Part shown: positions 26,093 through 41,526 of the stretch, one piece after another
Position numbering within the stretch: the first letter of the stretch is position 1
Layout of the letters: each line of letters opens with the position of its first letter
Assembly (NCBI GenBank): GCA_965279565.1
Contig: OZ257249.1
Span: 1,040,496 to 1,104,495 of the forward strand
Reading direction: 5' to 3'
Origin: Tagaea sp.
GTDB taxonomy: Bacteria; Pseudomonadota; Alphaproteobacteria; CACIAM-22H2
Length of the DNA: 64,000 nt
The notes under the pieces: model-generated
The model's database searches: none
What the model saw: the letters and a program-made list of their open reading frames with translations, nothing else
Told to the model about the DNA's origin: nothing
Program-made: the position numbers and the translations under genes

Positions 26093-26199
26093 TTTCATGT
26101 TCCTCAACAAATCGGGGCCGGTCCCCTCGGGGAGCACGGTGTATAGGAAGATCACAATTACTCGGCAAGGGCGAATACAGCCGCCCGCCGAAAGAAAAT

Positions 26200-26655
26200 T
26201 TACTTGGTTATATTAGCAGGTATTGCCGACATTGTCAGGGCCGCGACCCGCGCACCGGGTCCGCGCTGGTAATAGTCGGCCCGTCGCCCGACAAGGGCGA
26301 ATCCGAGCCCGGCGTAGAGTGCACGTGCCGCGGGATTGTCCTCGCCGACCTCCAGGAACAGCGCCCGGGCGCGCGGCACGCACGCCGCGATCCCCACGAC
26401 AAGCGCATGGCCGATGCCGAGTCGTCGTGCGCTCGCAAGCACGCCGATGCTGAGCAGCTCCGCCTCGTCCGCGGCGAGCCGGCCGATCGCGAATCCGGCC
26501 GGCTCGCCGTCGGCCAGTGCAAGCAGCGCGAACACGCCGGGCGAACGCAGGACTTCGCCCATCGCGTCGACCGACCAGCCGTCGGCGAAGGTCTCGCGAT
26601 GCAGTACCGACAGCAGCTCGGCATAGGCCCGGTCGACGGGATGGATCTCGATCAT
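26200..26655 (-). CDS. rimI: Ribosomal-protein-alanine N-acetyltransferase (GNAT).
   Basis: 151 aa GNAT with the acetyl-CoA motif RRLGIGHALV. Overlaps tsaB by 4 nt as in the conserved tsaB-rimI pair. Confidence 0.8.
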   Translation of the reverse strand: MIEIHPVDRAYAELLSVLHRETFADGWSVDAMGEVLRSPGVFALLALADGEPAGFAIGRLAADEAELLSIGVLASARRLGIGHALVVGIAACVPRARALFLEVGEDNPAARALYAGLGFALVGRRADYYQRGPGARVAALTMSAIPANITK

Positions 26656-27287: not shown

Positions 27288-27301
27288 GCTAAACAGGCCC
27301 C

Positions 27302-27865
27302 ATGACGCTCGCCGCCATTGCCCCGCCGCAGTACGACGTGACGATCGATCTGCGCTACGCCACGCCGGCCAACTTCACCGGCAAACCCGTCTATGCGCGC
27401 GCCGCCGCGTTCCTGCATCCGGACGGCGCACGCCATCTCGCGCGAGCGATCGAGCTTGCCGCGGCGCTTGGCCTGCGCCTCAAGATCTTCGATGCCTTCC
27501 GCCCGTCCGAGGCGCAGTGGGCGTTGTGGAATTTCCGCCCCGATCCCGATTTCATCGCCGATCCGCGGCGCGGCTCGCCCCATTCGCGCGGCGTGGCGGT
27601 CGATCTCACGCTGGTCGACGCGGCCAGCGGCGAGGAGCTGGAGATGGGCACCGAGTTCGACGCCTTCACCGAGCTTTCGTATCACGGCAGCACCGAGGTC
27701 AGCGTCGAAGCGCAGCGCAACCGGCACATGCTGCTCGGGCTGATGTCGGCGGCCGGCTGGGATTTCTACAGGCGCGAATGGTGGCACTATCAGCTCTTCG
27801 AATCGAGGCGCTATCCGGTGCTGTCCGACAGCGTGCTGTCGCCGGGCATGATGGGTGCCGCCTGA
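27302..27865 (+). CDS. ddpX: D-alanyl-D-alanine dipeptidase (VanX/DdpX, peptidase M15D).
   Basis: DLRYATPANFTG..LKIFDAFRP...SPHSRGVAVDLTLVD...EMGTEFDAFTE..WWHYQL is the VanX zinc-peptidase signature. Confidence 0.8.
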   Translation: MTLAAIAPPQYDVTIDLRYATPANFTGKPVYARAAAFLHPDGARHLARAIELAAALGLRLKIFDAFRPSEAQWALWNFRPDPDFIADPRRGSPHSRGVAVDLTLVDAASGEELEMGTEFDAFTELSYHGSTEVSVEAQRNRHMLLGLMSAAGWDFYRREWWHYQLFESRRYPVLSDSVLSPGMMGAA

Positions 27866-27903
27866 CGAAGGCGCGGCCGGAGCGCGAATCGGGAGACGCA
27901 AGC

Positions 27904-29127
27904 TTGACCCGCCTTGCCGTAATCGTCAAAGGCTGGCCCCGCCTGTCCGAGACCTTCATCGCCCAGGAGCTGGTCGGGCTCGAGGCGCGGGGTCTCGAAC
28001 TCGAGCTGTGGTCGCTGCGCCACCCGACCGACACGCGCCGGCATGCGCTCGCCGGCTCGCTGAAGGCCAGGGTCAACTACCTGCCCGAATATCTGTGGCG
28101 CGAGCCGGCCCGTGCGCTCGCGGGCTGGGTGCAGGCACGCCGCCTGCCCGGCTACGCCGCCGCACTTGCCACGTTCCTTTCCGACTGGCGGCGCGATCCC
28201 ACGCCCAACCGCGGCCGGCGTTTCGGACAGGCCTGCGTGCTCGCGGCCGAGATGGGGCCGGAAACCGCGCATCTCTACGCGCACTTCATCCATACGCCGG
28301 GCTCGGTCGCGCGCTACGCCGCGATCATGCGCGGGCTGGGCTGGTCGGCCTCGGCGCATGCCAAGGACATCTGGACCACGCCCGACTGGGAGAAGCGCGA
28401 AAAGCTCGCCGCGATGCATTGGTGCACGACCTGCACAAAGGCGGGCTTCGAACATCTCGAAACGCTCGGGCCCGGCAAGACGCGGCTCGTCTATCACGGG
28501 CTCGATTTCGCGCGCTGGCCCGACCCGCCGGCCCGCGCCGGAAAGGACCCGAATGCGCCCGTCGTCATCGTGTCGGTCGGCCGGCTCGTCGCGAAGAAGG
28601 GCTATGACGACACGATCGCGGCCCTTGCACGCATCGGCACCGCGCGCGCCTGGCGCTTCGTGCATGTCGGCGGCGGCCCCTTGAAAGCGCAGCTTCAGGC
28701 GCAGGCGGCGGCCGCCGGCATTGCCGACCGGATCGAATGGCGCGGGGCGCGCGACCAGGCCGACGTGCTGTCGGCCCTGCGCGAAGCCGACCTGTTCGTG
28801 CTGGCAAGCCGGATCGCCGCCGACGGCGACCGCGACGGGCTGCCCAACGTGCTGATGGAAGCGGCGAGCCAGGGCCTCGCCCTCGTCGCCACCGACGTCG
28901 CCGCGATCCCCGAACTGGTCGGGCCGGAAAGCGGCGTGCTGGTCCCGCCCGGCGACGTGGCGGCGCTTGCCGCGGCGATCGAAGGACTGCTTGGCGATCC
29001 GGATCGCCGCGCGACGCTGGGTGCGGCGGCCAACGCGCGCGTCCGGCGCGACTTTCCCTTCGCGCGCGGATTGGAGACGCTGTACGACTTGCTGCACGCA
29101 TGCGTATCGCCGCCTATGCACCGCTGA
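27904..29127 (+). CDS. Glycosyltransferase family 4 (retaining GT-B), TTG start.
   Basis: The C-terminal GT4 motif region reads VGRLVAKKGYDD...ASRIAADGDRDGLPNVLMEAASQGLALVATDVAAIPELV. GGGAG lies 8 nt before the in-frame TTG. Confidence 0.75.
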   Translation: MTRLAVIVKGWPRLSETFIAQELVGLEARGLELELWSLRHPTDTRRHALAGSLKARVNYLPEYLWREPARALAGWVQARRLPGYAAALATFLSDWRRDPTPNRGRRFGQACVLAAEMGPETAHLYAHFIHTPGSVARYAAIMRGLGWSASAHAKDIWTTPDWEKREKLAAMHWCTTCTKAGFEHLETLGPGKTRLVYHGLDFARWPDPPARAGKDPNAPVVIVSVGRLVAKKGYDDTIAALARIGTARAWRFVHVGGGPLKAQLQAQAAAAGIADRIEWRGARDQADVLSALREADLFVLASRIAADGDRDGLPNVLMEAASQGLALVATDVAAIPELVGPESGVLVPPGDVAALAAAIEGLLGDPDRRATLGAAANARVRRDFPFARGLETLYDLLHACVSPPMHR

Positions 29128-30230
29128 AGCCGCCCGACCATCCGGTGCCGTCCGGCGACCGGCGTGTGGCGCGGCTGCTCGACCAGGCCCTGAAACTCGC
29201 CGGGCACGAGGTCGAATGGGCCGGCCGGCTGCGCAGCCGCGACGCGACGGGCGATCCGGCGCGTCAGGCGCGGCTCGCGAGGATCGGCGGCTATCTTGCC
29301 GCGCGCCTGATCCGGCGCTGGAAAGCCGGGCCGTCGCATCTGCGCCCCGATCTCTGGTTCACCTATCACCTCTATTACAAGGCGCCCGACCATCTCGGGC
29401 CGCCGGTCGCCAGGGCGCTCGGCATTCCCTATGTGGCGGTCGAGGCGTCGGTCGCGATGAAGCGCGCCGGCGGACCGTGGGATGCCGGCCATCGCGCCGT
29501 GCTCTCAGCACTGGCGCAGGCCGCTGCAATCGTCTCGCTCAATCCCGGCGACGTGCCGGCACTCGCACCGCATCTCGCGCATGGCACGAAACAACTCGTG
29601 CTGCCGCCGTTCCTCGATTCCAGGCCCTACGCTTCGGCCGCCGCGAACCGCGACATGCATCGCGACGCCTGGGCGCGGCGCCTGAAATTCGATCCGTCGC
29701 GACCGCTGCTGCTCGCCGTCGGCATGCACCGGCCGGGCGACAAGCTGCGTTCCTATGCCGTGCTGGCCGAAGCTTTGGGCCGCATCGCGGCACGCGACTG
29801 GCAGCTCATGATCGTCGGCGACGGACCGGCGCGGTCCGACGTGGAGGCAGCCTTCGCGTCCCTGCGCGCACGCGTCGCGTTCGCGGGCCAGCTCGACGAG
29901 GAATCGCTTGCCGGCCTGATGGCCGCGTCCGACATTTTCGCGTGGCCGGCGATCAACGAGGCCTACGGCATGGCGATCCTCGAAGCGCAGGCGAGCGGCC
30001 TGCCCGTCGTCGCCGGGCGCGGACCCGGCGTGGCCGCGATCGTCGCCGACGGCATCACGGGTACGCTTGTTCCGCCCGGCGATGCGGCGGCGTTCGCCCA
30101 AGCGCTCTCGTCGCTGCTCGACGATCCCGACCGTCGCGCCGCGTTCGGCCGGCAGGCGGCCGTGAAGGTCGCCGCGTCGCACGGCCTGGCCGGGGCCGCC
30201 GCGCAGCTCGACAAGGCGATCGCGCGATGA
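29100..30230 (+). CDS. Glycosyltransferase family 4, second copy.
   Basis: MRIAAYAPLKPPDHPVPSGD...LAVGMHRPGDKLRSY...INEAYGMAILEAQASGLPVVAGRGPGVAAIV is the GT4 EX7E-type pattern. It overlaps the upstream GT4 by 28 nt. Confidence 0.75.
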   Translation: MRIAAYAPLKPPDHPVPSGDRRVARLLDQALKLAGHEVEWAGRLRSRDATGDPARQARLARIGGYLAARLIRRWKAGPSHLRPDLWFTYHLYYKAPDHLGPPVARALGIPYVAVEASVAMKRAGGPWDAGHRAVLSALAQAAAIVSLNPGDVPALAPHLAHGTKQLVLPPFLDSRPYASAAANRDMHRDAWARRLKFDPSRPLLLAVGMHRPGDKLRSYAVLAEALGRIAARDWQLMIVGDGPARSDVEAAFASLRARVAFAGQLDEESLAGLMAASDIFAWPAINEAYGMAILEAQASGLPVVAGRGPGVAAIVADGITGTLVPPGDAAAFAQALSSLLDDPDRRAAFGRQAAVKVAASHGLAGAAAQLDKAIAR

Positions 30231-30829
30231 CGACCCATATCGCCTTCATGCGCCACGGGCCGACCGCATGGAACGGTGCAAAGCGCCTGCAGGGCCGCGC
30301 CGACATCGAGCTCACGCCGCGCACGCTCACGTTCCTCAAAGAACGCCGGCTGCCGCGCGAGTTCGCCGACTGGCGCGTGCTGTGCTCGCCCTTGCAGCGC
30401 TGCCGGCAGACGGCCGAGGCGCTCGGCCTTGCCGGCGAGATCGATCCGCGCCTTGTCGAGATGGACTGGGGTGCATTCGAGGGGCGCACGGTCGAGCAGC
30501 TGCGCATCGAACAGGGCGACGCGTTCGCGATGAACGAATCGCGCGGGCTCGACTTCACGCCGCCGCGCGGGGAATCGCCGCGAATGGTGCAGGCGCGCGT
30601 TGCCCCGCTGCTGGCCGAGATCGCCGCCGCCGGCCGCGACACGCTGTGCGTGACGCATCGCGGCGTGTTCCGCGCCGTCTACGCCGCCGCGCGCGGCTGG
30701 GACATGACGGGCGATTCGCCCGACAAGCTCGATCTCTACGCGCTGCACGTCTTCACGCTGGCACCCGACGGCACGCCGTCGGTCGACAAGCTCAATCTCG
30801 CGCTGAAGCGGCGATGGCGAAAATCCTGA
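30227..30829 (+). CDS. Histidine-phosphatase (phosphoglycerate-mutase) family protein.
   Basis: MTTHIAFMRHGPTAWN..RLQGRADIELT...LCVTHRGVFRAV carries the RHG catalytic-His motif of His_Phos_1. ATGA overlap with the upstream GT4 stop. Confidence 0.75.
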   Translation: MTTHIAFMRHGPTAWNGAKRLQGRADIELTPRTLTFLKERRLPREFADWRVLCSPLQRCRQTAEALGLAGEIDPRLVEMDWGAFEGRTVEQLRIEQGDAFAMNESRGLDFTPPRGESPRMVQARVAPLLAEIAAAGRDTLCVTHRGVFRAVYAAARGWDMTGDSPDKLDLYALHVFTLAPDGTPSVDKLNLALKRRWRKS

Positions 30830-31893
30830 TCCACGTCCAGCACCTGCTCGGCACCGGCCATGCGCGACGCATGGCCGCGATCGCGGCGGCGTGCGCGAAG
30901 CACGGTCACGATGTCGTGCTCGCAAGCGGCGGCATGAAGCTTGGTCTCGCGACCGGTGCCGCGAAGCTCGTGCAGCTTCCGGCGATGCGCGCGATCGACG
31001 CGACCTTCGCCACGCTCGTGGATGCGCAAGGACGCGCGGTCGACGATGCGTGGCGCACGGCGCGGCACGACGCCACGCTGGCGCTGTTCGACTCGTTCCG
31101 CCCCGACCTGCTGGTCGTCGAGCTCTATCCGTTCGGCCGTTCGATGCTGCGCTTCGAGCTTGAACCGCTGCTGGAACGCGCGCGGCGCATTCCGCGCCTG
31201 TGTTCGGTGCGCGACGTGCTGCAGCGGCCCGACGGATCGAAGGCCGCCGCGCGCGTGGAATCCGCGAAGCGCTTCAACGGCGTGCTCGTGCATGGCGATG
31301 CGAAGCTGCTCGCTTTGCCCGACAGCTGGCCCGAATGTGCCGATCTCGGCGAACGGCTGCATTACACCGGCTACGTGCCGGGCGATCCGGGCGTGACGGC
31401 GAACTCACGCGATGAGATTGTCGTGTCGGTCGGCGGCGGGGCGGCAGGCGCGAAGCTCGTTGCGGCAGCACGCGCCCTTGCCGCGCGCCGCGCGCATGCG
31501 GGCGAACGCTGGCGCATCCGGACCGGCGAAGATGCGCCTGCGCTCGCAGCACCCAATCCCCATGTCGTCGTCGAGCCCAACAGGCGCGATTTCCCCGACC
31601 TGCTGGCACATGCCCGCCTGTCGGTGAGCCAGGCCGGCTACAATACGTGTGTGGACCTGCTGCGCGCGGGCTGCCGGGCCGTCCTCGTTCCGTTCGCCGA
31701 AGCACGCGAGCGCGAGCAGACGATCCGCGCCGCCGCATTCGCGCGGCACGGCTGGGCGTCGGTCTGCGCCGAGGCCGACCTGTCGGCCGACACGCTCGGT
31801 GCCGCGATCGACGCCGCACCGGTGCCGCCGGCCCATCGGATCGCTTGCGATGGAGCCGTGCAAACGGCCAAACTCCTGACAAGATGGCTATGA
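30814..31893 (+). CDS. Glycosyltransferase, GT28/MurG-like C-terminal domain (COG4671-type predicted GT).
   Basis: MAKILIHVQHLLGTGHARRMAAIAAACAKHGHDVVL, plus a C-terminal half with GT-B nucleotide-binding features (LSVSQAGYNTCVDLLRAGCRAVLVPF). Confidence 0.6.
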   Translation: MAKILIHVQHLLGTGHARRMAAIAAACAKHGHDVVLASGGMKLGLATGAAKLVQLPAMRAIDATFATLVDAQGRAVDDAWRTARHDATLALFDSFRPDLLVVELYPFGRSMLRFELEPLLERARRIPRLCSVRDVLQRPDGSKAAARVESAKRFNGVLVHGDAKLLALPDSWPECADLGERLHYTGYVPGDPGVTANSRDEIVVSVGGGAAGAKLVAAARALAARRAHAGERWRIRTGEDAPALAAPNPHVVVEPNRRDFPDLLAHARLSVSQAGYNTCVDLLRAGCRAVLVPFAEAREREQTIRAAAFARHGWASVCAEADLSADTLGAAIDAAPVPPAHRIACDGAVQTAKLLTRWL

Positions 31894-32651
31894 TCCCGCC
31901 CCCGGCCGACTGGGCCGACCTCGACCGCACCCTCGACGCGTATGCCGCCGCCGGCAAGACGGCGACCTGGTGGTGGCGCGACGACGACGCCACGCATCCT
32001 ACGCCCGCACTCGACAGGCTGCTCGCGCTTGCCCCCGACGTGCCGCTCGTGCTGGCCGTGATCCCGGCGCGCGCGCAGCCCGAGCTCGCCGAACGGCTGA
32101 AGACGGCACCGGCCGCGCGCGTCTGCCTGCATGGCTGGAACCACTGGAACCATGCACCGCTCGGCGAGCCGAAGGCCGAGCTGGGCGCCCACCGGCCGAC
32201 TTCCTACGTGCTGGGCGAGCTCGCGCGCGGCTGGATGCGGCTCACGCAGATCTTCCCCAACGCGATGACGCTGCTCGTCCCGCCGCACAATCGCGTGGCG
32301 CCTTCGGTCGCCGCCGGCCTGCGTGGTGCGGGCATTCGCGCATTGTCGACTTACGGTGCGCGCAAGAACGTGCCGGCCGGTATTGCGCAGACGAACACGC
32401 ATACCGACATCATGGACTGGGGGACGCGCGCCTTCATCGGCGAGGGGCCCGCACTCGGCGCGCTCGTAGCACATTTCAAGGCGCGCCTTGCGGGCACGGC
32501 CGATCCCGGGGAAGCGACGGGCGTTCTCAGCCATCATCTTGCACACGACGAGGGTGCGTGGCGCTTCCTCGCCACGCTGATCGCGCAGCTGAAGGCGCAT
32601 CGCGCGACACGGGTGCTCGACCCGCGCGACATTTTCGCCGCTTCGGCATGA
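31884..32651 (+). CDS. Polysaccharide deacetylase-like (CE4/NodB-homology) protein.
   Basis: WWWRDDDATHP fits the Asp-Asp metal motif and CLHGWNHWNH the His-x-x-x-x-His motif. ATGA overlap with the upstream GT stop. Assignment from short motifs only. Confidence 0.45.
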   Translation: MAMIPPPADWADLDRTLDAYAAAGKTATWWWRDDDATHPTPALDRLLALAPDVPLVLAVIPARAQPELAERLKTAPAARVCLHGWNHWNHAPLGEPKAELGAHRPTSYVLGELARGWMRLTQIFPNAMTLLVPPHNRVAPSVAAGLRGAGIRALSTYGARKNVPAGIAQTNTHTDIMDWGTRAFIGEGPALGALVAHFKARLAGTADPGEATGVLSHHLAHDEGAWRFLATLIAQLKAHRATRVLDPRDIFAASA

Positions 32652-33139
32652 ACCGGCTTTCCTATCCCGTGCGCGCGACATACGGCGACTACGCGCGCGC
32701 GGCCGTCGGCCTCCTGTTCACGCTGGGTCCGGCACTGGCGATCGGGCAGTGGAGCTACGCCCACTGGCTGCTGCTGCCTCTTGCCGGCCTGTTCGGCGTA
32801 TTCGCGTTCCGCACTTGGCGGCGCGGCCGAACCGTCATCGAATGGGACGATACGGGTCTATCGATTTCGGGCGGCGGGCGGGCTAGTCTGCCGTGGTCGG
32901 AGCTGGTTTCGCTCAAGCTCGCGTTCTACGCGACGGGGCGCGACCGCACGGGGGGCTGGATGCAACTGACGCTACGCGGCAACGGCGCGAAAGTGCTCGC
33001 GGATTCGGGTGCGGAGAATTTCCCCGCCTTCGCCGCGCGCTGTGCGGCGGCGGCCCAGGCGAAGAACCTGACGCTCGACACCGCGACGCGCGCCAATTTC
33101 GCCTCGCTCGGCATCCGGCTTGCCGGGGACGCGGCATGA
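32648..33139 (+). CDS. Small hypothetical membrane protein (163 aa).
   Basis: Two hydrophobic segments (AAVGLLFTLGPALAIGQW; LLLPLAGLFGVFAF). It is ATGA-coupled to genes on both sides. Confidence 0.45.
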   Translation: MNRLSYPVRATYGDYARAAVGLLFTLGPALAIGQWSYAHWLLLPLAGLFGVFAFRTWRRGRTVIEWDDTGLSISGGGRASLPWSELVSLKLAFYATGRDRTGGWMQLTLRGNGAKVLADSGAENFPAFAARCAAAAQAKNLTLDTATRANFASLGIRLAGDAA

Positions 33140-35058
33140 ACCTTCTCGAAGTCCGCGACCTGGCGATCGATTTCCGCGTGCACAACACGCACGTGAAAGC
33201 GGTCGACGGCGTGGACTTCCGCGTGCGGCCCGGCACGACGGTCGCCATCGTCGGCGAATCGGGTTCGGGCAAGACTGTCATCAGCCAGTCCGCACTCGGC
33301 ATCCTGCCCAAGGTCGGGCGCATCAGCCGCGGCTCGATGCTTTTCCGCGACCGGGGCAACGAGATCGATCTCGCGAAGCTCGATCCGGACGGGGCGGAAT
33401 TCCGCAAGCTGCGTGGCGGGCGCATCTCGATCATCTTCCAGGAACCGATGACGTCGCTGTCGCCGCTGCACACGGTCGGCGACCAGATTTCGGAAGCCGT
33501 GCGCCTGCACCAGTCGGACGACCCGAAGCTCGCACTCGAGCTGGCCGAGGACATGCTGCGTCGCGTGGGTTTCCCCAATCCGGCGAAGGCGCTGGTCACG
33601 TATCCGTTCGAGCTTTCGGGCGGCCTGCGCCAGCGCGCGATGATCGCAATGGCGCTGGTGTGCCGGCCGGCCCTGCTGATCGCCGACGAGCCGACCACCG
33701 CCCTCGACGTGACGATCCAGGCGCAGATCCTTAAGCTGCTGAAGGACCTGCAGCAGGATCTCGGCATGGCCATCCTGCTGATCACGCACGATCTGGGCGT
33801 CGTCGCCAACATGGCCGACGAGGTCGTCGTCATGTATCGCGGCCGCGTGATGGAATCGGGCATGCGCGAGGACATCTTCCGCCGGCCCGAGCATCCCTAT
33901 CTGAAGGCGCTGCTGCACGCGGTCCCGCGCTTCGACATGGCGCCGGGCGAGAAGCTCGTCCCGCTGCGCGAGATCAAGTCCGACATCGGCTCGATGATGC
34001 GCAAGGGGACCGGCGAGGCCAACGCGCGCGTCGCGAACAAGGGCCCCGCCCCCGGTGCTATCGACCGGCGGGCACCCGTGCTGTCGGTGCGCAACCTGCG
34101 CAAGTCCTACACGATCCGCAAGTCGGGCTTCCTGGGTGCGGGCAAGCCGCAGTCGGTGCTGGCGGTCGACGACATCAGCTTCGACGTGTTCCGCGGCGAA
34201 TGCCTCGGCCTTGTCGGCGAATCGGGCTGCGGCAAGACGACCGTGTCGAAGATGGTCATGCGCGCGCTGACGCCGGATTCCGGCAAGGTCGTGTTCGAGG
34301 GGCGCGACGTCCACACGCTGGAAGGCGACGACCTGTTCGAGTACCGCCGCCAGGTCCAGTTCGTGTTCCAGGACCCGTTCGGCTCGCTCAATCCGCGCAT
34401 GACGGTGTTCGACATCGTCTCCGAGCCGCTGGTCATCCACGCGATCGGCGACGCCGCCTCGCGCCGCGCCACGGTCAGCGAGCTGATGCGCGTCGTCGGG
34501 CTCGACGACCGCGCGCTCAACCGCTATCCGCACTCGTTCTCCGGCGGGCAGCGCCAGCGCATCGGCATCGCGCGGGCGCTGGCCCTCGGGCCCGAGATGC
34601 TGCTGCTCGACGAACCGGTCTCCGCCCTCGACGTGTCGATCCAGGCGCAGGTGCTGAACCTGCTCAAGGACCTCAAGAAGGCGCTCGGCCTCACCTACGT
34701 GTTCGTCAGCCACAATCTCGCGGTCGTCGACTACATGGCCGACCGCATCGCGGTGATGTGCGCGGGCCGGCTGGTCGAGGTCGCGCCGCGCGCCGCCCTC
34801 TTCAAGGCGCCGATCCATCCCTATACGCAGGCCCTGCTCGCGGCCGTGCCCGAGCCGGACATCGACCGGCCGCTCGACCTGACGGCACTGATGGAGGGCC
34901 GCGCCTCGATCCCGTCCGCCTGGCCCGCCCCCTTCACGATCGACGAGGCGGCCGATGTCGGCTTCATCGATCTGGGCCAGGGACATTTCGTGCGCGCCGC
35001 CATCGGCACGTCGCCTTCCACATTGCGTGCCTGCGCACGCCCGCGGGAGCTCGCATGA
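33136..35058 (+). CDS. yejF: ABC transporter ATP-binding protein with duplicated ATPase cassettes (YejF/DppDF-like).
   Basis: Two Walker A sites (GESGSGKT; GESGCGKT) and two LSGGxxQR signatures (LSGGLRQR; FSGGQRQR). Confidence 0.85.
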   Translation: MNLLEVRDLAIDFRVHNTHVKAVDGVDFRVRPGTTVAIVGESGSGKTVISQSALGILPKVGRISRGSMLFRDRGNEIDLAKLDPDGAEFRKLRGGRISIIFQEPMTSLSPLHTVGDQISEAVRLHQSDDPKLALELAEDMLRRVGFPNPAKALVTYPFELSGGLRQRAMIAMALVCRPALLIADEPTTALDVTIQAQILKLLKDLQQDLGMAILLITHDLGVVANMADEVVVMYRGRVMESGMREDIFRRPEHPYLKALLHAVPRFDMAPGEKLVPLREIKSDIGSMMRKGTGEANARVANKGPAPGAIDRRAPVLSVRNLRKSYTIRKSGFLGAGKPQSVLAVDDISFDVFRGECLGLVGESGCGKTTVSKMVMRALTPDSGKVVFEGRDVHTLEGDDLFEYRRQVQFVFQDPFGSLNPRMTVFDIVSEPLVIHAIGDAASRRATVSELMRVVGLDDRALNRYPHSFSGGQRQRIGIARALALGPEMLLLDEPVSALDVSIQAQVLNLLKDLKKALGLTYVFVSHNLAVVDYMADRIAVMCAGRLVEVAPRAALFKAPIHPYTQALLAAVPEPDIDRPLDLTALMEGRASIPSAWPAPFTIDEAADVGFIDLGQGHFVRAAIGTSPSTLRACARPRELA

Positions 35059-36989
35059 TCCGTCCGGTCCGCCTCTTCGCCGCCGCCCTCATCGCCTGCG
35101 TTTCGGCATCGGCGTTCGCGGCACCCTACCGGGAAACGCCGTGGATGGCCGACGACGTCGCCGCCGGCCGCTTCCCGCCGGTGGAAAAACGCCTGCCGGC
35201 GGTTCCGCTGGTGATCGCGCCCACGCGCGCGGACTGGGTGCCGGGCCGGCACGGCGGCGAGCTGCGCATGCTGTCGGGCCGCGCGCAGGACGTGCGGCTG
35301 ATGTCGGTCTACGGCTATGCGCGTCTCGTCGGCTTCGACGCCGACCTCAAGCTGCGCGCCGACATCCTCGAAGCGGTCGAGAACGAAGGCGACCGCGTCT
35401 TCACGATGCGCCTGCGCGAGGGCCATCGCTGGTCCGACGGAAAGCCGTTTACGTCCGAGGATTTCCGCTACTACTGGGAGGACGTCGCGAACAGCAAGGA
35501 ACTGTCGCCCGGCGGACCGCCCAAGGCGCTGCTGGTCGACGGCAAGCCGCCGCGCGTGAGCTTTCCCGACGCGCGCACGGTGCGCTATGCGTGGGACGGG
35601 CCGAACCCCGGCTTCCTGCCGGCGATCGCGGGGCCCGCCCCGCTCGTGATCTACCGTCCGTCGCACTACATGAAGGGCTTCCACGCGCGCTATGCCGAGC
35701 GCGAGGTGCTGGTGCAGGCCGCCCGGCGCGCCAACGCGCGCAACTGGGCCCAGCTCCACAACCGGCTCGACAATCTCAACCGCAACGACAATCCGGACCT
35801 GCCCACGCTCGACCCGTGGGTCGTGCGCACGCGCGCCCCGTCCGAGCGCTTCGTGTTCGAGCGCAACCCCTATTACCACCGCGTCGACATCGAGGGCCGC
35901 CAGCTTCCCTATATCGACCGCGTCATCATGAACGTGGCCGACGGCAAGATCCTGTCGGCCAAGACCGGCTCGGGCGAGGCCGACCTGCAGGCGCGCGGCC
36001 TGACCTTCGCGAACTACACGTTCCTGCGCCAGGCCGGCAAGCGCAACGAGTTCGAGACCGTGCTGTGGGACACGGCCAAGGGCGCGCAGATCGCCCTCTA
36101 TCCCAATCTCAACGTCAACGATCCGGAATGGCGGGCACTGATGCGCGACCTGCGCTTCCGGCGTGCGCTGTCGCTCGCGATCGACCGCAAGGAAGTGAAC
36201 CAGGTCGTCTATTTCGGGCTCGCGATCGAGGGTGCGAACACCGTGCTGCCCGGCAGCCCGATCTACGACGCGAAGTACCGCAGTGCTTGGCACCGGCTCG
36301 ACCTGCGCGAGGCAAACCGGCTGCTCGACGAGATCGGCCTGACGAAGCGCGATTCGCGCGGCGTGCGCCTGATGCAAGACGGCCGCCCGCTCGAGATCGT
36401 CGTCGAGACCGCGGGCGAGGACGTCGAGCAGGTCGACGTGCTGGAGCTGGTGCACGATTCGTGGATGCGGGCGGGCGTGAAGCTCTATTCGCGCCCGCAG
36501 CAGCGCGAGATCTTCCGCAACCGCATCTTCGCGGGCGAGACGAAGATGAGCGTGTGGTTCGGTCTGGAAAACGCCGTCGCCACGCCCGACTTCTCGCCCG
36601 AGGAACTCGCCCCGGTTTCCCAGCAGGGCCTGCAATGGCCCAAATGGGGTCAGCACTACGAGACGGGCGGCAAGTCCGGCGAGCCGATCGACATGGCGGC
36701 AGCCAAGGAACTGATGGCGCTCAACGACGCCTGGCGCACCACGGCGGGTGCGGCCGCCCGCGCCGAGATCTGGCGCAAGATGCTGGCGATCCACGCCGAC
36801 AACGTGTTCTCGATCGGCATCGTCGCGAACGTGCGCCAGCCGGTCGTCATCTCCAGGCGCCTGCGCAACGTCCCGCGCCAGGGCGTGTGGAACTGGGACC
36901 CGGGCGCCTTCTTCGGCATCCACAACATGGATGCGTTCTGGTTCGACGAGCAGCCGCAGCCGCGCACGGCTGCCGCACCTCAGCGCTGA
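35055..36989 (+). CDS. yejA: ABC transporter periplasmic substrate-binding protein, SBP family 5 (YejA-like oligopeptide/muropeptide binder).
   Basis: Signal peptide MIRPVRLFAAALIACVSASAFA. A roughly 620 aa mature SBP_bac_5 protein (LRMLSGRAQDVRLMSVYGYARLVGFD..). Confidence 0.85.
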   Translation: MIRPVRLFAAALIACVSASAFAAPYRETPWMADDVAAGRFPPVEKRLPAVPLVIAPTRADWVPGRHGGELRMLSGRAQDVRLMSVYGYARLVGFDADLKLRADILEAVENEGDRVFTMRLREGHRWSDGKPFTSEDFRYYWEDVANSKELSPGGPPKALLVDGKPPRVSFPDARTVRYAWDGPNPGFLPAIAGPAPLVIYRPSHYMKGFHARYAEREVLVQAARRANARNWAQLHNRLDNLNRNDNPDLPTLDPWVVRTRAPSERFVFERNPYYHRVDIEGRQLPYIDRVIMNVADGKILSAKTGSGEADLQARGLTFANYTFLRQAGKRNEFETVLWDTAKGAQIALYPNLNVNDPEWRALMRDLRFRRALSLAIDRKEVNQVVYFGLAIEGANTVLPGSPIYDAKYRSAWHRLDLREANRLLDEIGLTKRDSRGVRLMQDGRPLEIVVETAGEDVEQVDVLELVHDSWMRAGVKLYSRPQQREIFRNRIFAGETKMSVWFGLENAVATPDFSPEELAPVSQQGLQWPKWGQHYETGGKSGEPIDMAAAKELMALNDAWRTTAGAAARAEIWRKMLAIHADNVFSIGIVANVRQPVVISRRLRNVPRQGVWNWDPGAFFGIHNMDAFWFDEQPQPRTAAAPQR

Positions 36990-37012
36990 CGGCGACGGAG
37001 ACCGGCAAGAGC

Positions 37013-38011
37013 ATGTTCGCCTATCTCGTCCGCCGACTTCTCGTGATGGTGCCCACGCTGCTGGCGATCAGCGCGATCGTCTTCACGATCATCCAGCTTC
37101 CGCCGGGCGACTACCTGTCGACCCTGATCGCCGAGCTGCAGTCGCAGGGCGAAGCTGCGAATCTGGAGCGCATCGAGTTCCTGCGCCAGCAATACGGGCT
37201 CGACCGCTCGCCGGTCGAACAGTATTTCCACTGGCTGTTCGGGATGCTGCACGGCGATCTCGGCTGGTCGTTCGAGTACAACCTGCCCGTCGCGCACGTG
37301 ATCGGCGACCGGCTGGTGCTGTCGTTCCTCGTCGCGTTCGTGACCGTGATCTTCACCTATGCGGTCGCGTTCCCCATCGGCATCTATTCGGCCACGCACC
37401 AGTATTCGTGGGGCGACTACGGGCTGACGCTGCTCGGCTTCCTCGGCCTCGCCACGCCGTCGTTCCTGCTCGCGCTCGTGATGCTCTATCTCGCGAACAT
37501 CTGGTTCGGCACGTCGATCGGCGGGCTGATGGACCCCGAGTTCGTCGACCAGCCGATGAGCTGGGGCAAGTTCGCGTCGGTGCTCGAGCATCTGTGGATC
37601 CCGGTCATCGTGATCGGCACGTCGGGCACGGCCGCGATGATCCGCCGCCTGCGCGCCAACCTGCTCGACGAGCTGCAGAAGCAGTACGTGACGACCGCGC
37701 GCGCCAAGGGCCTGCCGCCGCGCCGCGCACTGCTCAAGTACCCGCTGCGCATGTCGCTCAACCCCTTCATCTCCGACATCGGCGACCTGCTGCCGCACAT
37801 GATCTCGGGGGCCGCCATCGTGTCGGTCGTCATGTCGCTGCCGACGAACGGGCCGATGCTGCTGTCGGCCCTGCGCAGCCAGGACATGTACCTCGCCGGC
37901 TCGTTCCTGATGATCGAGGCGGTGCTGATCGTCGTCGGCGTGTTCCTGTCGGATCTGGCGCTGGCAGCCCTCGATCCGCGCATCCGGCTGCATGGCGGGG
38001 CGACGAAATGA
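37013..38011 (+). CDS. yejB: ABC transporter permease (YejB/DppB-like).
   Basis: BPD_transp_1 EAA-like motif VTTARAKGLPPRRALLKYPLR, six TM segments. Confidence 0.85.
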   Translation: MFAYLVRRLLVMVPTLLAISAIVFTIIQLPPGDYLSTLIAELQSQGEAANLERIEFLRQQYGLDRSPVEQYFHWLFGMLHGDLGWSFEYNLPVAHVIGDRLVLSFLVAFVTVIFTYAVAFPIGIYSATHQYSWGDYGLTLLGFLGLATPSFLLALVMLYLANIWFGTSIGGLMDPEFVDQPMSWGKFASVLEHLWIPVIVIGTSGTAAMIRRLRANLLDELQKQYVTTARAKGLPPRRALLKYPLRMSLNPFISDIGDLLPHMISGAAIVSVVMSLPTNGPMLLSALRSQDMYLAGSFLMIEAVLIVVGVFLSDLALAALDPRIRLHGGATK

Positions 38012-39180
38012 CCGACGCGCCCGCTTCCGGCGACAGGCTCGCGCACTATGTGCGCCGCGAACCGTTCGACGCCTACGACGGCGAGAAGACGGACCCGTCG
38101 CTCGAAAACTACTACATGGCCACGCAGTGGAAGCTGATGTGGTGGAAGCTCAAGCGCCACAAGCTTGCCCTGTGGTCGGGCGCGTTCCTGCTCGTCATGT
38201 ACCTGTCGATCCTCGTCAGCGAGCTGATCGCCCCCTATTCGCTGGCCACGCGCAACACCGACTTCATCTACGCGCCGCCGCAGGCCGTGCATCTGTGGCA
38301 CGAGGGCCGGTTCGTCGGCCCGTTCGTGTACGGGCTCGACTATTCGCTCGACATGGACACGCTCAAGCGCAACTACGTGCCCAATCCCGACAAGGTGCAG
38401 CCGATCCGCTTCTTCTGCCGCGGCGAGAGCTACGAGTGGATGGGCCTGGTCGAGGGCAGCCTCCATTTCATATGCCCGGCCGAGGACGGCACGCTGTTCC
38501 TGATGGGAACCGACCGGCTCGGGCGCGACATGTTCAGCCGACTCGCCTACGGTACCCGCATTTCGCTGACGATCGGGCTGATCGGCGTGACGATCAAGTT
38601 CGTGCTGGGAATCGTGCTGGGCGGGCTTGCCGGCTATTACGGCGGCTGGGTCGACATGGTGATCCAGCGCGTGATCGAGATCATCCGCTCCTTCCCCGAG
38701 CTGCCTTTGTGGATGGCGCTGTCGGCGTCGCTGCCCGTCTCGTGGAGCCCGCTCTACATCTATTTCGGCATCACGCTGATCCTCGGCCTGATCGGCTGGA
38801 CGGGGCTGGGGCGCGCCGTGCGCTCGAAGCTGCTGAGCCTGCGCGAGGAGGATTTCTGCACGGCGGCGAACCTGATGGGGGCCAAGCCGCGGCGCATCAT
38901 CTTCCGCCATCTCGTGCCCAGCTTCATGAGCCACCTGATCGCATCGGCCACGCTGGCGATCCCGACGATGATCCTTGGCGAAACAGCGCTTTCGTTCCTG
39001 GGTCTCGGCCTGCGCCCGCCGATCACGTCGTGGGGCGTGCTGCTGACCGAGGCGCAGAACATCAACGTCGTGGCGCTCTATCCGTGGCTGCTGCTGCCGG
39101 TCCTCGCGGTGATCGCGACCGTGCTCGCCTTCAATTTCCTCGGCGACGGGCTGCGCGACGCGGCCGATCCCTACAAGTAG
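38008..39180 (+). CDS. yejE: ABC transporter permease (YejE/DppC-like).
   Basis: 390 aa, N-terminal extension plus a permease core (NLMGAKPRRIIFRHLVPSFMSHLI). ATGA overlap with yejB. Confidence 0.85.
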   Translation: MTDAPASGDRLAHYVRREPFDAYDGEKTDPSLENYYMATQWKLMWWKLKRHKLALWSGAFLLVMYLSILVSELIAPYSLATRNTDFIYAPPQAVHLWHEGRFVGPFVYGLDYSLDMDTLKRNYVPNPDKVQPIRFFCRGESYEWMGLVEGSLHFICPAEDGTLFLMGTDRLGRDMFSRLAYGTRISLTIGLIGVTIKFVLGIVLGGLAGYYGGWVDMVIQRVIEIIRSFPELPLWMALSASLPVSWSPLYIYFGITLILGLIGWTGLGRAVRSKLLSLREEDFCTAANLMGAKPRRIIFRHLVPSFMSHLIASATLAIPTMILGETALSFLGLGLRPPITSWGVLLTEAQNINVVALYPWLLLPVLAVIATVLAFNFLGDGLRDAADPYK

Positions 39181-40005
39181 TCAGCGCTTGGCCAGCCACA
39201 GGCTGGCCGCATGCGCAGCCTTCGGCATCGGGATCGCGTCGAGGCCGCGCGAAGCGATCTCGCCCTGCATGTTGCGCGCGATCCATGCCGAACCCCAGAC
39301 GAGATCGAAGCCGCTGCCGGCCAGCAGGGCCGCGACCGCGTTCTGCTCGTTGTAGCCGCGCCACGCCCAGTCGGCCGGATAGGGCTCGGGCAGGAAGATG
39401 TCGTGGAAATGCACGAGGGCGCCGGCCGGAAGTACTGGCAGGATGCGCCCCAGCACGTGGTCCACGTCGGTGCCCGGCATCAGGATGTGCGAGGAATCGA
39501 CGAACAGCACGTCGCCCGCGACCAGCGTGTCGAGCGCGCATTCGGTCTCCTCGAGCCGGTGGCGGTGCCACGTGACGGCGAGCCCCTCGAGCGTGGCGCG
39601 CGGATCGGGATCGATGCAGGTGATCTGCGTGGCGAGCTTTGCGTCGGCGACGGCGCGCGCGAGGAACCGGGTCGAATGGCCCGAGCCGATCTCGACGATG
39701 CGCTTGGGTCGGCGCGCGCGCACCAGCGCATAGGCGAAGGCCGCATCGAGGCCGGGGAACCAGTCCTGTTCCCAGCGCGGGGCCGGCGGCGCCGCGTTCC
39801 CGAAGGCGAGCAGCGTGTCGCGATGTGCCGCGATCGTGTCGAGACCGCCGAGGAACGTCGATCGGGCGGCCTCGAAACGGCGCGCGAGTGCGGGGTAGGT
39901 TTCCGGCGGGCGCACGCCGGCGGCGTGGCGATAGGGAATGAAGAAGCCGCGCGCCGTGCCCAGCAGCGTGGCGGCCTCGAACAGCAGGCGGCGGATCACG
40001 CTCAC
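39181..40005 (-). CDS. Class I SAM-dependent methyltransferase-like protein (TylF/CmcI/Methyltransf_24-like), GTG start overlapping the MBL gene stop.
   Basis: Glycine-rich motif I IVEIGSGHSTRFLA and acidic motif II ITCIDPDP. It ends one nt after the yejE stop on the opposite strand. Confidence 0.5.
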   Translation of the reverse strand: MSVIRRLLFEAATLLGTARGFFIPYRHAAGVRPPETYPALARRFEAARSTFLGGLDTIAAHRDTLLAFGNAAPPAPRWEQDWFPGLDAAFAYALVRARRPKRIVEIGSGHSTRFLARAVADAKLATQITCIDPDPRATLEGLAVTWHRHRLEETECALDTLVAGDVLFVDSSHILMPGTDVDHVLGRILPVLPAGALVHFHDIFLPEPYPADWAWRGYNEQNAVAALLAGSGFDLVWGSAWIARNMQGEIASRGLDAIPMPKAAHAASLWLAKR

Positions 40006-40835
40006 AGCGCGATCGTCTCGCCTTCTTTCGCGACGATCGTGCCGGGCCGCATCGCGGCGGCTTCTGCCGCGATCCTGTCCATGAACGAATCGTCGTGCGA
40101 CGGGTCGTGGTGGAAAATCGCGAGGCGCTTGGCGCCGGCCTTCTCGACGAGGCGGATCCCCTCCTGCCACGTCGAATGCCCCCAGCCGACATGGCCCGGG
40201 AATTCGGCGTCGGTATAGGTGCTGTCGTAGATGACGAGATCGGCGCCCGCGATCAGGCCGAGGATGCTGGCGTCGGGCTTGCCCGGCAGGTGCTCGGTGT
40301 CCGTCACGTAGCAGAGCGACTTGCCCGCGACCTCGACGCGATAGCCGGTCGCGCGGTTGGGATGGTTGAGCCCCGCCGTCTTCACGATCACGCCGGGTGC
40401 CGGGTTCAGCGTCTTGCCGAGCGGGAAGTCGGTGTAGGTGACGTCGGCGCCGAAGATCTCGATCGGGATCGGGAAGAGCGGTGCCTGCATCATTTTCGAC
40501 AGCACGTCCTTCAGCGACATCTCGGGGGCAAGATGGGCGGCCCACAGGCGGAAGCGGTTGCGCTTGTCGTAGAGCGGGCTGAAGAACGGGATGCCCTGGA
40601 TATGGTCGAAATGCGTGTGCGTGAAATACCAGTCGGCATCGACGGGCTGATCGGGGGCCGCGAGTGCTCGGCCCAGCGGCAGCAGGCCGGTGCCCGCGTC
40701 GAAGATCATCAGGCGGTCGGAAGCGCGCACTTCAAGGCAGGGCGTGTTGCCGCCATAGCGCACGGTCGTCGGGCCCGGGCACGGGATCGAGCCGCGCACG
40801 CCCCAGAAAGTCACCGACAGGCGATCGGTCGTCAC
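40002..40835 (-). CDS. MBL-fold metallo-hydrolase.
   Basis: MTTDRLSVTFWGVRGSIPCPG..NTPCLEV..FDAGTGL...HTHFDHIQG...HHDPSHDD is the HxHxDH metal site of the beta-lactamase superfamily. Confidence 0.75.
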   Translation of the reverse strand: MTTDRLSVTFWGVRGSIPCPGPTTVRYGGNTPCLEVRASDRLMIFDAGTGLLPLGRALAAPDQPVDADWYFTHTHFDHIQGIPFFSPLYDKRNRFRLWAAHLAPEMSLKDVLSKMMQAPLFPIPIEIFGADVTYTDFPLGKTLNPAPGVIVKTAGLNHPNRATGYRVEVAGKSLCYVTDTEHLPGKPDASILGLIAGADLVIYDSTYTDAEFPGHVGWGHSTWQEGIRLVEKAGAKRLAIFHHDPSHDDSFMDRIAAEAAAMRPGTIVAKEGETIAL

Positions 40836-41497: not shown

Positions 41498-41526
41498 TCG
41501 CAGTCGAGTCTAGCAACTCGCCCGCC

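Follow-up and report, generated by a model that had tools for sequence, protein, structure and literature searches.

Glycoside-building enzymes linked to a PepT/Opp-family importer in a widespread proteobacterial locus

The question raised by this locus is why a set of sugar-modifying enzymes is encoded in one run of genes with an ABC importer, and what that importer carries. The window, the whole 64 kb stretch of DNA analysed, holds at positions 27302-39180 a series of 11 + strand ORFs, all open, co-directional and intact, having lengths in agreement with homologues and GC3 values of 0.81-0.93. The junctions were read directly, and the stop-start-coupled array described in the initial annotation was borne out. 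The first stop (27865) is separated by 38 nt from the TTG start of the second gene (27904), which is preceded by GGGAGA, and the binding-protein gene lies 23 nt before the first permease gene (36989 to 37013). The two GT4 genes share 28 nt (29100/29127), the histidine phosphatase and GT1/GT28-like genes overlap by 16 nt (30814/30829), and ATGA stop-start overlaps occur at 30227, 32648, 33136, 35055 and 38008. All the coordinates, overlaps and gaps listed earlier stood except at 31884, where ATGGCTATGA had been misread as ATGATGA; the sixth gene may start there (10-nt overlap) or at 31890 (ATGA), both being possible. Promoter-like and terminator-like sites showed no excess within the array. That the 11 genes form one operon-like unit is part of the best explanation, for which our confidence is about evenly balanced.

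Stop-start overlaps are common in operons, are unremarkable alone and are no proof of a common function, which lends something to the reading that two unrelated operons abut by chance in the window's lineage with no functional link. The linkage was surveyed in 47 complete loci using the transferase as marker, the importer being counted if within 10 kb. The importer ATPase (53-94% identity) was found at this distance in 32 of the 47 loci, in four arrangements; no importer was present within 10 kb in the other 15 (Mesorhizobium, Roseibium, Pannonibacter and others), and this also speaks for coincidence. Against it, the linkage survives rearrangement across three proteobacterial classes, and the full array was present in all six loci fetched independently of the transferase (4/4 by the binding-protein orthologue and 2/2 by the deacetylase orthologue). 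Chance abutment is thus extremely improbable. Of 11 distinct relatives having called genes, 10 retain the stop-start overlap where the enzyme block meets the ATPase gene. The proposal that the sugar enzymes and the ABC importer act as a functional unit is supported by their co-occurrence in three classes and several gene orders. Ten of the array genes, all but ddpX, recur as a group across Alpha-, Beta- and Gammaproteobacteria: two GT4 enzymes, a histidine phosphatase, a GT1/GT28-like transferase, a CE4-fold deacetylase, a small membrane protein, a fused ABC ATPase, an SBP_bac_5 binding protein and two permeases. Neither a curated family nor a paper describing the locus was found. This ten-gene core is a widespread, uncharacterised proteobacterial locus combining glycoside-building enzymes with their own binding-protein-dependent importer.

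The importer is encoded by the last four genes, all on the + strand. A fused two-domain ATPase of the PepT/Opp family (33136..35058, 640 aa; two ABC_tran and two oligo_HPY domains) is followed by a periplasmic SBP_bac_5 (cluster C) binding protein (35055..36989, 644 aa; SBP_bac_5 3.5e-52) with a signal peptide ending AFA-AP, and by permeases of 332 aa (37013..38011; BPD_transp_1_N and BPD_transp_1) and 390 aa (38008..39180; OppC_N and BPD_transp_1). The importer had been called Yej-type, and the scores do not sustain that name. The ATPase, 42% identical to E. coli YejF, scored 611 bits with GsiA and 556 bits with YejF, and the 390-aa permease 266 bits with Opp4C and 126 bits with YejE, all under cut-off. 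The 332-aa permease is 28% identical to E. coli YejB and 57-95% identical to its counterparts in relatives. By BLASTP the binding protein was not similar to E. coli YejA (E 0.45); of the solved YejA structures, S. meliloti 7Z8E was matched just at E 0.074 and E. coli 7ATR was absent at E <= 10. The importer is a PepT/Opp-family system and not YejABEF.

The first gene, ddpX (27302..27865, + strand, 187 aa), encodes a D-Ala-D-Ala dipeptidase (Peptidase_M15 3e-36; NCBIfam NF007557 245 bits against a cut-off of 176) with the motifs SPHSRGVAVD and EWWH seen in the sequence. With a genuine DdpX equivalog as first gene and a fused ATPase related to YejF, the array could encode a YejABEF-type peptide/muropeptide importer acting with DdpX in peptidoglycan-peptide recycling, the sugar-modifying block being attached to it. 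In E. coli the DdpX gene heads the ddpXABCDF operon, which encodes a PepT-family importer, and the combination in one operon therefore has a precedent. The YejBEF-YepA system of Agrobacterium is itself a muropeptide importer (10.1101/2022.07.15.499691). The binding protein here, however, shares with YejA/YepA no more than membership of the SBP_bac_5 superfamily, the Yej and Ddp importer-subunit models all score under cut-off, and the ddpX-GT4 junction is one of just two that do not overlap. The gene was present in only 5/47 loci, all from the window's nearest clade, others having a fourth glycosyltransferase instead; 42 loci are without ddpX, yet the importer stays with the transferases. The dipeptidase gene is a lineage-specific add-on outside the conserved core, and muropeptide recycling, which rests on it, is very unlikely.

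Among solved structures, the binding protein came closest to the pectin binder SPH1118 (250 bits), T. maritima 5IPW and MelB, which binds alpha-galactosides. SPH1118, from Sphingomonas sp. A1, binds pectin/oligogalacturonide (PMC9314435); the closest relatives with a defined ligand are saccharide binders, of oligogalacturonide (SPH1118) and of alpha-galactosides (MelB). The stacking residue Trp594 and Arg466 of SPH1118 are kept, and Arg57, Arg438 and Arg496 are replaced by Val/Ser, Asp and Asp, respectively. Of the four arginines that contact uronate carboxylates in the SPH1118 cleft, three are thus lost, which makes an anionic ligand unlikely; the pattern is compatible with a sugar that is not anionic and may carry an amine. 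The equally close relative 5IPW is annotated as an oligopeptide binder without known ligand, which leaves room for a peptide-like ligand.

HMM searches bore out the initial domain calls, with Peptidase_M15, two Glycos_transf_1, His_Phos_1, Glyco_tran_28_C, SBP_bac_5 and ABC domains. The first GT4 enzyme (27904..29127, + strand, 407 aa; Glycos_transf_1 2.6e-29) has no TM segment, is 43-85% identical to its counterparts in relatives and has PimB'/PimA as closest solved relatives. The second (29100..30230, + strand, 376 aa; Glycos_transf_1 3e-28) contains the E-x7-E motif; its closest solved relatives are PimB', MshA and a sucrose-phosphate-synthase-like protein, and all NCBIfam equivalogs are far under cut-off. 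The third transferase (30814..31893, + strand, 359 aa) is a GT1/GT28-like GT-B enzyme from a family of 1630 50%-identity clusters at E <= 1e-30; it matched Glyco_tran_28_C (5e-11) in the C-terminal domain only and the MurG equivalog at 34.6 bits against a cut-off of 250. Foldseek on its AF2 model (pLDDT 91.6) gave CalG1-4, OleD and YjiC as top matches, MurG ranking 47. As a family call GT28 was thus not upheld, the modelled fold being nearer to natural-product, small-molecule GT1 enzymes.

The histidine phosphatase (30227..30829, + strand, 200 aa; His_Phos_1 6e-37) has the RHG motif and second His. The next enzyme (31884 or 31890..32651, + strand, 253-255 aa) is a cytoplasmic CE4-fold (NodB-type) deacetylase. 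The CE4-like label was right as to the fold, the AF2 model (pLDDT 91.2) matching CE4 deacetylases in Foldseek with probability 1.0 and E 1e-7, but the Pfam CE4 score of 16.4 bits is under the 23.1 threshold; residues D31-D33, H81, H85 and H215-H219 are invariant. Natural fusions of the phosphatase to the transferase (P0369, 49% identity; L090) and of the transferase to the deacetylase (P0409, 42% identity) tie these three enzymes to one pathway, and some 9 of the top 150 cluster representatives are as long as the latter fusion should be. The small protein (32648..33139, + strand, 163 aa) has two hydrophobic N-terminal stretches and a soluble part of ~100 aa, belongs to no known family and matched nothing in Pfam or NCBIfam even at E <= 1. 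It is conserved in 17/47 loci, wherever seen between deacetylase and ATPase. The phosphatase and this small protein are missing from many relatives (19/47 and 17/47 given, respectively), and the phosphorylated-acceptor step is therefore not universal.

The core is usually accompanied by three convergent genes on the - strand. A Methyltransf_24 methyltransferase (39181..40005; Pfam 2.4e-13), in the same position in distant relatives, and an MBL-fold hydrolase (40002..40835; Lactamase_B_2, 5e-20), present in 35/47 loci and weakly matching a cyclic-nucleotide-degrading phosphodiesterase (35 bits), probably belong to the locus. The OmpR-type DNA-binding regulator (40832..41497) showed Trans_reg_C only, with no receiver domain detected even at E <= 1, and its relatives at ~50% identity keep Response_reg. 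In the window, 2 kb upstream of the array, are the ornithine-lipid genes olsB and olsA, an adjacency seen only in the nearest clade. Most relatives add an MsbA/HepA-like exporter (37/47 loci), a cNMP-binding protein and a fourth transferase; none of these was found in the 64 kb window, and without the exporter these 64 kb give no ground for proposing export and recapture in this genome. Neither the recurrent gene families nor the called genes of any locus examined included a recognisable initiating phosphoglycosyl transferase, Wzx/Wzy or Wzm/Wzt.

A glycolipid product was weighed against these data: the GT4 and GT1/28-like enzymes would attach sugars to a membrane lipid such as diacylglycerol or a phosphatidyl lipid, a HexNAc head group would become cationic HexN through the CE4 enzyme, the MsbA-like exporter of relatives would flip the lipid, and the importer would recover released head groups or supply a precursor. 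The phosphatidylinositol mannosyltransferases nearest to both GT4s, weak matches to N-acetylglucosaminyl-phosphatidylglycerol synthase, the MsbA/HepA-closest exporter and the olsBA neighbours agree with it, and the exporter suits a lipid-linked product no less than a soluble one. But the GT4 matches are generic, with every equivalog far under cut-off, the third transferase resembles soluble small-molecule enzymes, it is hard to see what a binding-protein-dependent importer would do for a membrane lipid, no flippase is nearby in the window or its clade, and the olsBA adjacency is clade-restricted. This alternative is considered unlikely. Rather less probable is salvage, in which the importer would bring in an exogenous N-acetylated oligosaccharide or glycoside (e.g. 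chito-oligosaccharide-like or plant-derived) to be deacetylated, dephosphorylated and re-glycosylated inside, the transported molecule being acceptor and not product. It would account for the exporter being unneeded in the window's clade, the weaker solved relatives include PepT-family binders of chitobiose, mannosides and alpha-galactosides, and a polysaccharide lyase (PF14099) is directly upstream of the importer in L034, L040 and L076; the lyase is limited to those three loci, however, most relatives carry the exporter, the conserved genes include no glycoside hydrolase, kinase or phosphorylase, and three or four transferases with methyltransferases are a biosynthetic and not a catabolic signature.

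Most likely, then, the locus serves the cytoplasmic assembly of a small amino-sugar glycoside and the uptake or recapture of the product or a related saccharide. From membership in very broad families (GT4, GT1/28, CE4, His_Phos_1 and SBP_bac_5) we infer its chemistry, step order, product and transported ligand as follows. The enzymes, without TM segments or signal peptides, would act in the cytoplasm to build a small glycoside or oligosaccharide, probably starting from a phosphorylated acceptor that the histidine phosphatase would dephosphorylate. An N-acetyl-hexosamine would be added by the GT1/28-like enzyme and then de-N-acetylated by the CE4 enzyme to a free amine; more sugars would come from the GT4 enzymes, with possible O-methylation of the product by the methyltransferase. 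Through the binding protein, which has a signal peptide, the importer would recapture the product or take up a closely related saccharide, not peptides. In the window's lineage ddpX stands at the 5' end in place of the exporter, cNMP-binding protein and fourth transferase. The core, taken with the convergent methyltransferase, MBL hydrolase and regulator, as an uncharacterised glycoside pathway with a linked saccharide importer is the best explanation overall, and we judge its chances of being right or wrong to be roughly equal.

Compared with known systems, the importer resembles YejABEF of E. coli, S. meliloti and A. tumefaciens in its PepT/Opp family, fused two-domain ATPase (42% identity to YejF), large cluster-C binding protein and two permeases (28-32% identity). 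It differs in the order F-A-B-E instead of A-B-E-F, in its position inside an enzyme operon where Yej stands alone, in every Yej subunit model being under cut-off with GsiA/Opp4C higher and, from YejBEF-YepA as well, in a binding protein that is not YejA/YepA-like. As in E. coli ddpXABCDF, a DdpX equivalog comes first and a PepT-family importer is present; here, however, six enzyme genes intervene, the DdpC model reached 146 bits against a cut-off of 434, DdpA had no match, and ddpX is confined to the nearest clade. The early steps of mycothiol and bacillithiol synthesis (MshA-MshA2-MshB; BshA-BshB) likewise run from a GT4 on a (phospho)acceptor through a phosphatase to a de-N-acetylase, and the second GT4 matches MshA and BshA models and structures (77 and 72 bits against cut-offs of 462 and 274); the likeness is an analogy only, the deacetylase here being CE4 and not LmbE-type, with no cysteine ligase and two or three extra transferases. 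Most relatives combine biosynthetic enzymes, ABC exporter and PepT-family importer as in the make-export-reimport system of staphylopine (Cnt), and transferase, CE4 deacetylase, methyltransferase and exporter as in NodC/NodB/NodS/NodIJ-type pathways, but the enzymes share no homology with theirs beyond the CE4 fold, the Cnt subunit models are under cut-off and the exporter is missing from the window. SPH1118, whose own transporter and enzyme context is unresolved according to its paper (PMC9314435), differs in the three replaced cleft arginines; with it and 5IPW the binding protein shares ~250 bits over ~575 residues, the 69-kDa cluster-C architecture and the conserved Trp594 and Arg466.

The eleven plus-strand reading frames at 27302-39180 were analysed together with the junctions between them. 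All of them were open, showed third-position G+C of 0.81-0.93 and matched their homologues in length, thereby supporting the eleven-gene array described in the initial annotation. The G+C of the window is about 68% and the raw ORF lists were therefore noisy. Direct reading also reproduced the junctions listed earlier, namely a 38-nt gap between ddpX and the first GT4 gene (start TTG at 27904, with GGGAGA just before it), a 28-nt overlap at 29100/29127, ATGA overlaps at 30227, 32648, 33136, 35055 and 38008, an overlap of 16 nt at 30814 and a gap of 23 nt at 36989/37013. Only position 31884 differed, which had been listed as ATGATGA but reads ATGGCTATGA, so that the sixth gene starts at 31884 or at 31890. 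The pattern scan of 26000-41800 revealed no excess of promoter- or terminator-like sites over shuffled sequences, and the sole strong terminator it contains, at 41567-41535 on the minus strand, is not within the array. Across the full window neither Rfam families (at gathering thresholds) nor tRNAs were matched, indicating that the array lacks a riboswitch or leader.

The array is bordered upstream by divergent tsaB. As the start codons of tsaB and ddpX are separated by 14 nt, at least one of the two units must have its promoter inside the coding sequence of the other. This spacing (27287-27302 in the window) is kept in the related loci L001 (6448-6463) and L002 (6493-6508). The block upstream at 21966-27287 (minus strand) holds miaB, an olsA-like acyltransferase and an olsB-like N-acyltransferase gene (ornithine-lipid), a probable fur, mucR/ros, rimI and tsaB, and the order from miaB to tsaB is conserved in the nearest relatives. 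Downstream, the stop of a convergent gene abuts the last permease gene. The hairpin at 41535-41567 (15 pairs, 11 of them G-C, and a T-run) follows the Gcw_chp gene at 41586-42341 (minus strand), predicted to encode an outer-membrane protein, and divides it from the unit of regulator, MBL-fold and methyltransferase genes; Gcw_chp and the BD-FAE/abhydrolase gene (42605-43684) are syntenic in relatives too. Farther away, the local G+C falls to 0.606 at 56001-58000, compared to about 0.68 elsewhere.

The distribution of the array was followed using the GT1/28-like transferase as marker. An alignment-based scan of one genome per species found it in at least 586 genomes of three proteobacterial classes, and a profile search (E <= 1e-30) placed the family in 1630 clusters at 50% identity. 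Among its hosts are Mesorhizobium, Rhizobium, Brucella/Ochrobactrum (with Brucella haematophila), Phyllobacterium, Pseudovibrio, Roseibium, Pannonibacter, Inquilinus, Rhodoferax and other Burkholderiales, and Gammaproteobacteria. The initial annotation had called for a synteny survey, which was carried out on 47 loci, without duplicates and each with its 10-kb flanks complete, and the importer was found within 10 kb of the transferase in 32 of them. It lies downstream on the same strand in 20 loci, upstream on the same strand in 5, downstream on the opposite strand in 6 and upstream on the opposite strand in 1, and is absent within 10 kb in 15. These counts follow the importer ATPase by tblastn (at least 50% coverage); conservation-based ORF families, in which shadow ORFs were ignored and the importer is slightly over-counted, gave 36/47. 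The CE4-fold protein was present in 42/47 loci, the His-phosphatase in 19/47, the 163-aa protein in 17/47 and ddpX in 5/47. Searches made without the transferase gave the same picture: all four binding-protein orthologues examined (60-63% identity), which were picked solely by the length of their contigs, sit in an array of GT4, GT4, phosphatase, GT, CE4, small protein and F-A-B-E (importer ATPase, binding protein and two permeases), followed by convergent methyltransferase, MBL-fold and regulator genes, and both deacetylase orthologues show this array as well. Of 11 distinct relatives for which genes were called, 10 have the start codon of the ATPase gene overlapped by the preceding gene. A linkage that has outlasted rearrangement in three classes points to a common function; the array is very probably a functional unit, and an adjacency of sugar enzymes and importer that arose by chance is barely credible. 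A metal link, suggested by a copper-chaperone-like gene (PF04314) close to several of the loci, was dropped as this gene is confined to one clade.

The first gene encodes, as first proposed, a VanX-type dipeptidase: the protein matched Peptidase_M15 and the DdpX equivalog NF007557 (245 bits against a cut-off of 176). The zinc-binding and catalytic motifs of VanX are SxHxxGxAxD and ExxH, and the translation contains SPHSRGVAVD and EWWH. Both GT4 enzymes scored 99-102 bits with Glycos_transf_1 (cut-off 26.4) and came near the cut-off of no NCBIfam equivalog; GT4b carries an E-x7-E motif and GT4a a D-x7-E variant. The fourth gene encodes a His_Phos_1 phosphatase by Pfam. The label GT28 given earlier to the next protein did not hold, as the MurG model TIGR01133 gave 34.6 against 250 and MurG ranked only 47th structurally, behind GT1 natural-product transferases. 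Pfam matches only its C-terminal Glyco_tran_28_C domain (PF04101) and not the N-terminal Glyco_transf_28 domain, and the closest structures by Foldseek to its model (pLDDT 91.6) are the GT1 natural-product glycosyltransferases CalG1-4, OleD and YjiC. Two array proteins, the CE4-fold protein and the 163-aa protein, had no significant Pfam or NCBIfam match. For the former, the CE4-like assignment stands at the level of the fold but not of the Pfam family, PF01522 being below its gathering threshold (16.4 vs 23.1 bits). Its AF2 model, built from 35 homologues (pLDDT 91.2), matched many CE4 structures with Foldseek probability 1.0 and E of 1e-7 to 1e-5 (NodB-type fold), and D31-D33, H81 and H85 (H-x3-H) and C-terminal H215/H216/H219 are invariant among the homologues, as alignment positions only; these residues are candidates for the Asp-His-His metal triad and the catalytic Asp/His of CE4 enzymes. 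The 163-aa protein has two N-terminal hydrophobic stretches and no Pfam or NCBIfam match even at E <= 1. No transmembrane segments or signal peptides were found in the array enzymes.

Gene fusions in the transferase family place the transferase in a single substrate stream with the phosphatase and the deacetylase. Fusions of 572-579 aa carry the phosphatase N-terminal to the transferase, as in the cluster representative P0369 (49% identical to the window phosphatase) and in another at the related locus L090. Fusions of 627-659 aa carry CE4 at the C-terminus; about 9 of the best 150 cluster representatives have this length, and P0409, the one checked, is 42% identical to the window deacetylase. 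The transferase-deacetylase fusion suggests that this transferase adds an N-acetyl-hexosamine which CE4 then deacetylates. In another representative, P0362 (785 aa), two stretches match the transferase profile and may be a tandem fusion of two GT1/28-like paralogues.

The importer comprises an ATPase with a fused double ABC and oligo_HPY extensions, an SBP_bac_5 binding protein with the signal peptide MIRPVRLFAAALIACVSASAFA, and two permeases; all four scored above the Pfam cut-offs for a PepT/Opp-Dpp-Nik importer (TC 3.A.1.5). Its earlier description as Yej-type was contradicted for each protein compared. The binding protein gave E 0.45 by BLASTP with E. coli YejA; against all PDB sequences it reached the S. 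meliloti YejA structure 7Z8E (PMC10128002) only at E 0.074 and 14 bits, and E. coli YejA 7ATR was not found at E <= 10. The ATPase scored 556 with YejF NF011713 (cut-off 834) and the permease 126 with YejE NF011596 (cut-off 439), lower than with GsiA (611) and Opp4C (266) respectively, which are also below their cut-offs. The identities of 42% between the ATPase and E. coli YejF and of 28-32% between the permeases and YejB/YejE are the level that would be expected between any two PepT-family systems. In Agrobacterium the muropeptide-binding partner of YejBEF is YepA, a YejA paralogue 38.7% identical to it (10.1101/2022.07.15.499691), and this places YepA in a clade that excludes the array binding protein. 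Specificity is set by the binding protein and, judged by sequence, the array transporter is not Yej; the Yej/muropeptide reading of the locus is highly improbable.

The best solved relative of the binding protein, at 250 bits, was SPH1118 from Sphingomonas sp. A1. This cluster-C protein of 69 kDa has pectin and oligogalacturonides, not peptides, as its ligands (PMC9314435). Further solved relatives are 5IPW, a T. maritima 'OppA' structure without ligand, and, more distantly, the alpha-galactoside binder MelB. The alignment of 28 orthologues revealed that two SPH1118 contacts are kept, the stacking Trp594 (Trp/Phe here) and Arg466, while Arg57 is replaced by Val/Ser, Arg438 by Asp/Ser/Glu and Arg496 by Asp/Asn/Gly. 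These contacts hint at a ligand of saccharide type that may not be a polyanion. The Kiloniellales loci L009, L012, L014 and L057 encode the ATPase and the two permeases with no binding-protein gene between them; the binding protein must be encoded elsewhere or absent. Immediately ahead of the importer genes, the Rhizobiales/Rhodobacterales loci L034 (355-1320), L040 (182-1141) and L076 (4439-5407) carry a polysaccharide lyase gene (PF14099), and a lyase link to the importer was rejected since only these 3 loci have it.

The window locus was then compared with those of its relatives. The gene ddpX is present only in the nearest clade (Tagaea/Telmatospirillum-like Rhodospirillales), beside tsaB with the same 14-nt divergent spacing. 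More distant relatives have another GT1/28-like gene (about 415 aa) in this place ahead of GT4a, from which the exporter and cNMP-binding genes diverge. As no homologue of these three genes was found anywhere in the 64-kb window, its locus is a reduced form headed by a lineage-specific dipeptidase. The MsbA/HepA-like ABC exporter of about 900 aa is present in 37/47 loci, the MBL-fold hydrolase in 35/47, the 152-aa cNMP-binding protein in 34/47, a class III nucleotide cyclase in 14/47 and DUF3095 in 8/47. The ABC_tran match of the exporter (880-900 aa) is split into about 368-471 and 724-868 in the related loci L005 (2250-4886, minus strand), L025 (12021-14735) and L093 (1041-3683), implying an insertion of about 250 aa in its nucleotide-binding domain. 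The exporter gene usually adjoins that of the stand-alone cNMP-binding protein, and cyclase/DUF3095 genes lie at 16634-18013 (minus strand) in L009 and 18432-19598 (plus strand) in L025. In the window, the MBL-fold gene (40002-40835, minus strand) weakly matches cyclic-nucleotide-degrading phosphodiesterases (Apyc1-like). The cyclase/DUF3095, MBL-fold and cNMP-binding genes look like a complete cyclic-nucleotide module on the locus. The OmpR-type regulator (40832-41497, minus strand) of the window and nearest relatives has no receiver domain detectable even at E <= 1, Response_reg is kept in orthologues at about 50% identity, and the window protein may be an orphan or degenerate response regulator.

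The locus is thus a tightly coupled, conserved unit in which soluble transferases are joined with a phosphatase, a CE4-fold enzyme and an importer of the PepT family whose binding protein is saccharide-binder-like and non-Yej. A small glycoside or oligosaccharide would be assembled in the cytoplasm on an acceptor that is probably phosphorylated, the phosphate being removed by the His-phosphatase. HexNAc addition would be followed by de-N-acetylation, the GT4 enzymes would supply further sugars and the product would perhaps be methylated by the convergent Methyltransf_24 protein. In most lineages it would leave through the MsbA/HepA-like transporter, possibly under cyclic-nucleotide control, and the importer would bring in the same compound or a close relative. 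The chances of this outline as a whole, from assembly to uptake, are about even. If the acceptor were instead the imported molecule, the enzymes would serve salvage, an improbable arrangement. The main rival is a glycolipid head-group pathway, which is unlikely on balance: the GT4 enzymes resemble PimA/PimB' and the exporter of relatives is MsbA-like, but a binding-protein-dependent importer is present and the transferase fold is GT1-like. Neither an initiating phosphoglycosyl transferase nor Wzx/Wzy or Wzm/Wzt could be recognised in the recurrent families of the 47 loci or in the called genes of the 11 annotated loci, making a classical polysaccharide unlikely, and this reading and that of an LPS core were set aside.

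The assembly outline can be carried further, as a tentative reading that is possible though rather doubtful, to a widespread proteobacterial system that makes, exports and re-imports a small diffusible amino-sugar glycoside, of which the window locus would be a reduced form. The compound could be a signal, public good, chelator or osmolyte, for example. Export in most lineages would be cyclic-nucleotide gated through four components: the class III cyclase or DUF3095, the 152-aa cNMP-binding protein, the MBL-fold phosphodiesterase-like enzyme and the MsbA-like exporter with its ATPase-domain insertion of about 250 aa. Recovery would fall to an importer from the 'peptide' ABC family that binds saccharides and is dedicated to this compound.

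All the parts belong to known superfamilies, and it is their conserved combination that is undescribed, especially the glycoside-building block tied to a 'peptide-family' importer. No description of the locus was found in a full-text literature search, and the GT1/28-like, CE4-fold and 163-aa proteins, the methyltransferases and the exporter have no equivalog in NCBIfam. The marker family is large (at least 1630 clusters and at least 586 genomes), yet its specific components are without curated family names. The enzyme set beside an importer annotated 'peptide/nickel' suggests an unknown small glycoconjugate in many soil, plant-associated and aquatic bacteria, and the same pairing suggests that a whole SBP_bac_5 transporter branch is mis-annotated as peptide transporters. 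The fusions and strict gene order provide a directly testable pathway order, and a tempting mis-assignment to Yej/muropeptide recycling is corrected.

Among known systems, YejABEF is a stand-alone operon in the order A-B-E-F, whereas here, as in relatives, the order is F-A-B-E with translational coupling to the upstream enzyme genes. The ddpXABCDF operon of E. coli is a precedent for a dipeptidase gene with an importer, but DdpC NF007376 scored 146 against a cut-off of 434 and NCBIfam gave no DdpA-type match for the binding protein. Mycothiol and bacillithiol synthesis were rejected on MshA (77 vs 462) and BshA (72 vs 274) scores and on a deacetylase that is CE4, not LmbE-type; no Cys ligase of the mycothiol/bacillithiol type was present in any locus examined. 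The pairs NodC/NodB, MshA/MshB and BshA/BshB share with the fused transferase and deacetylase, as an analogy only, the logic of sugar transfer followed by deacetylation.
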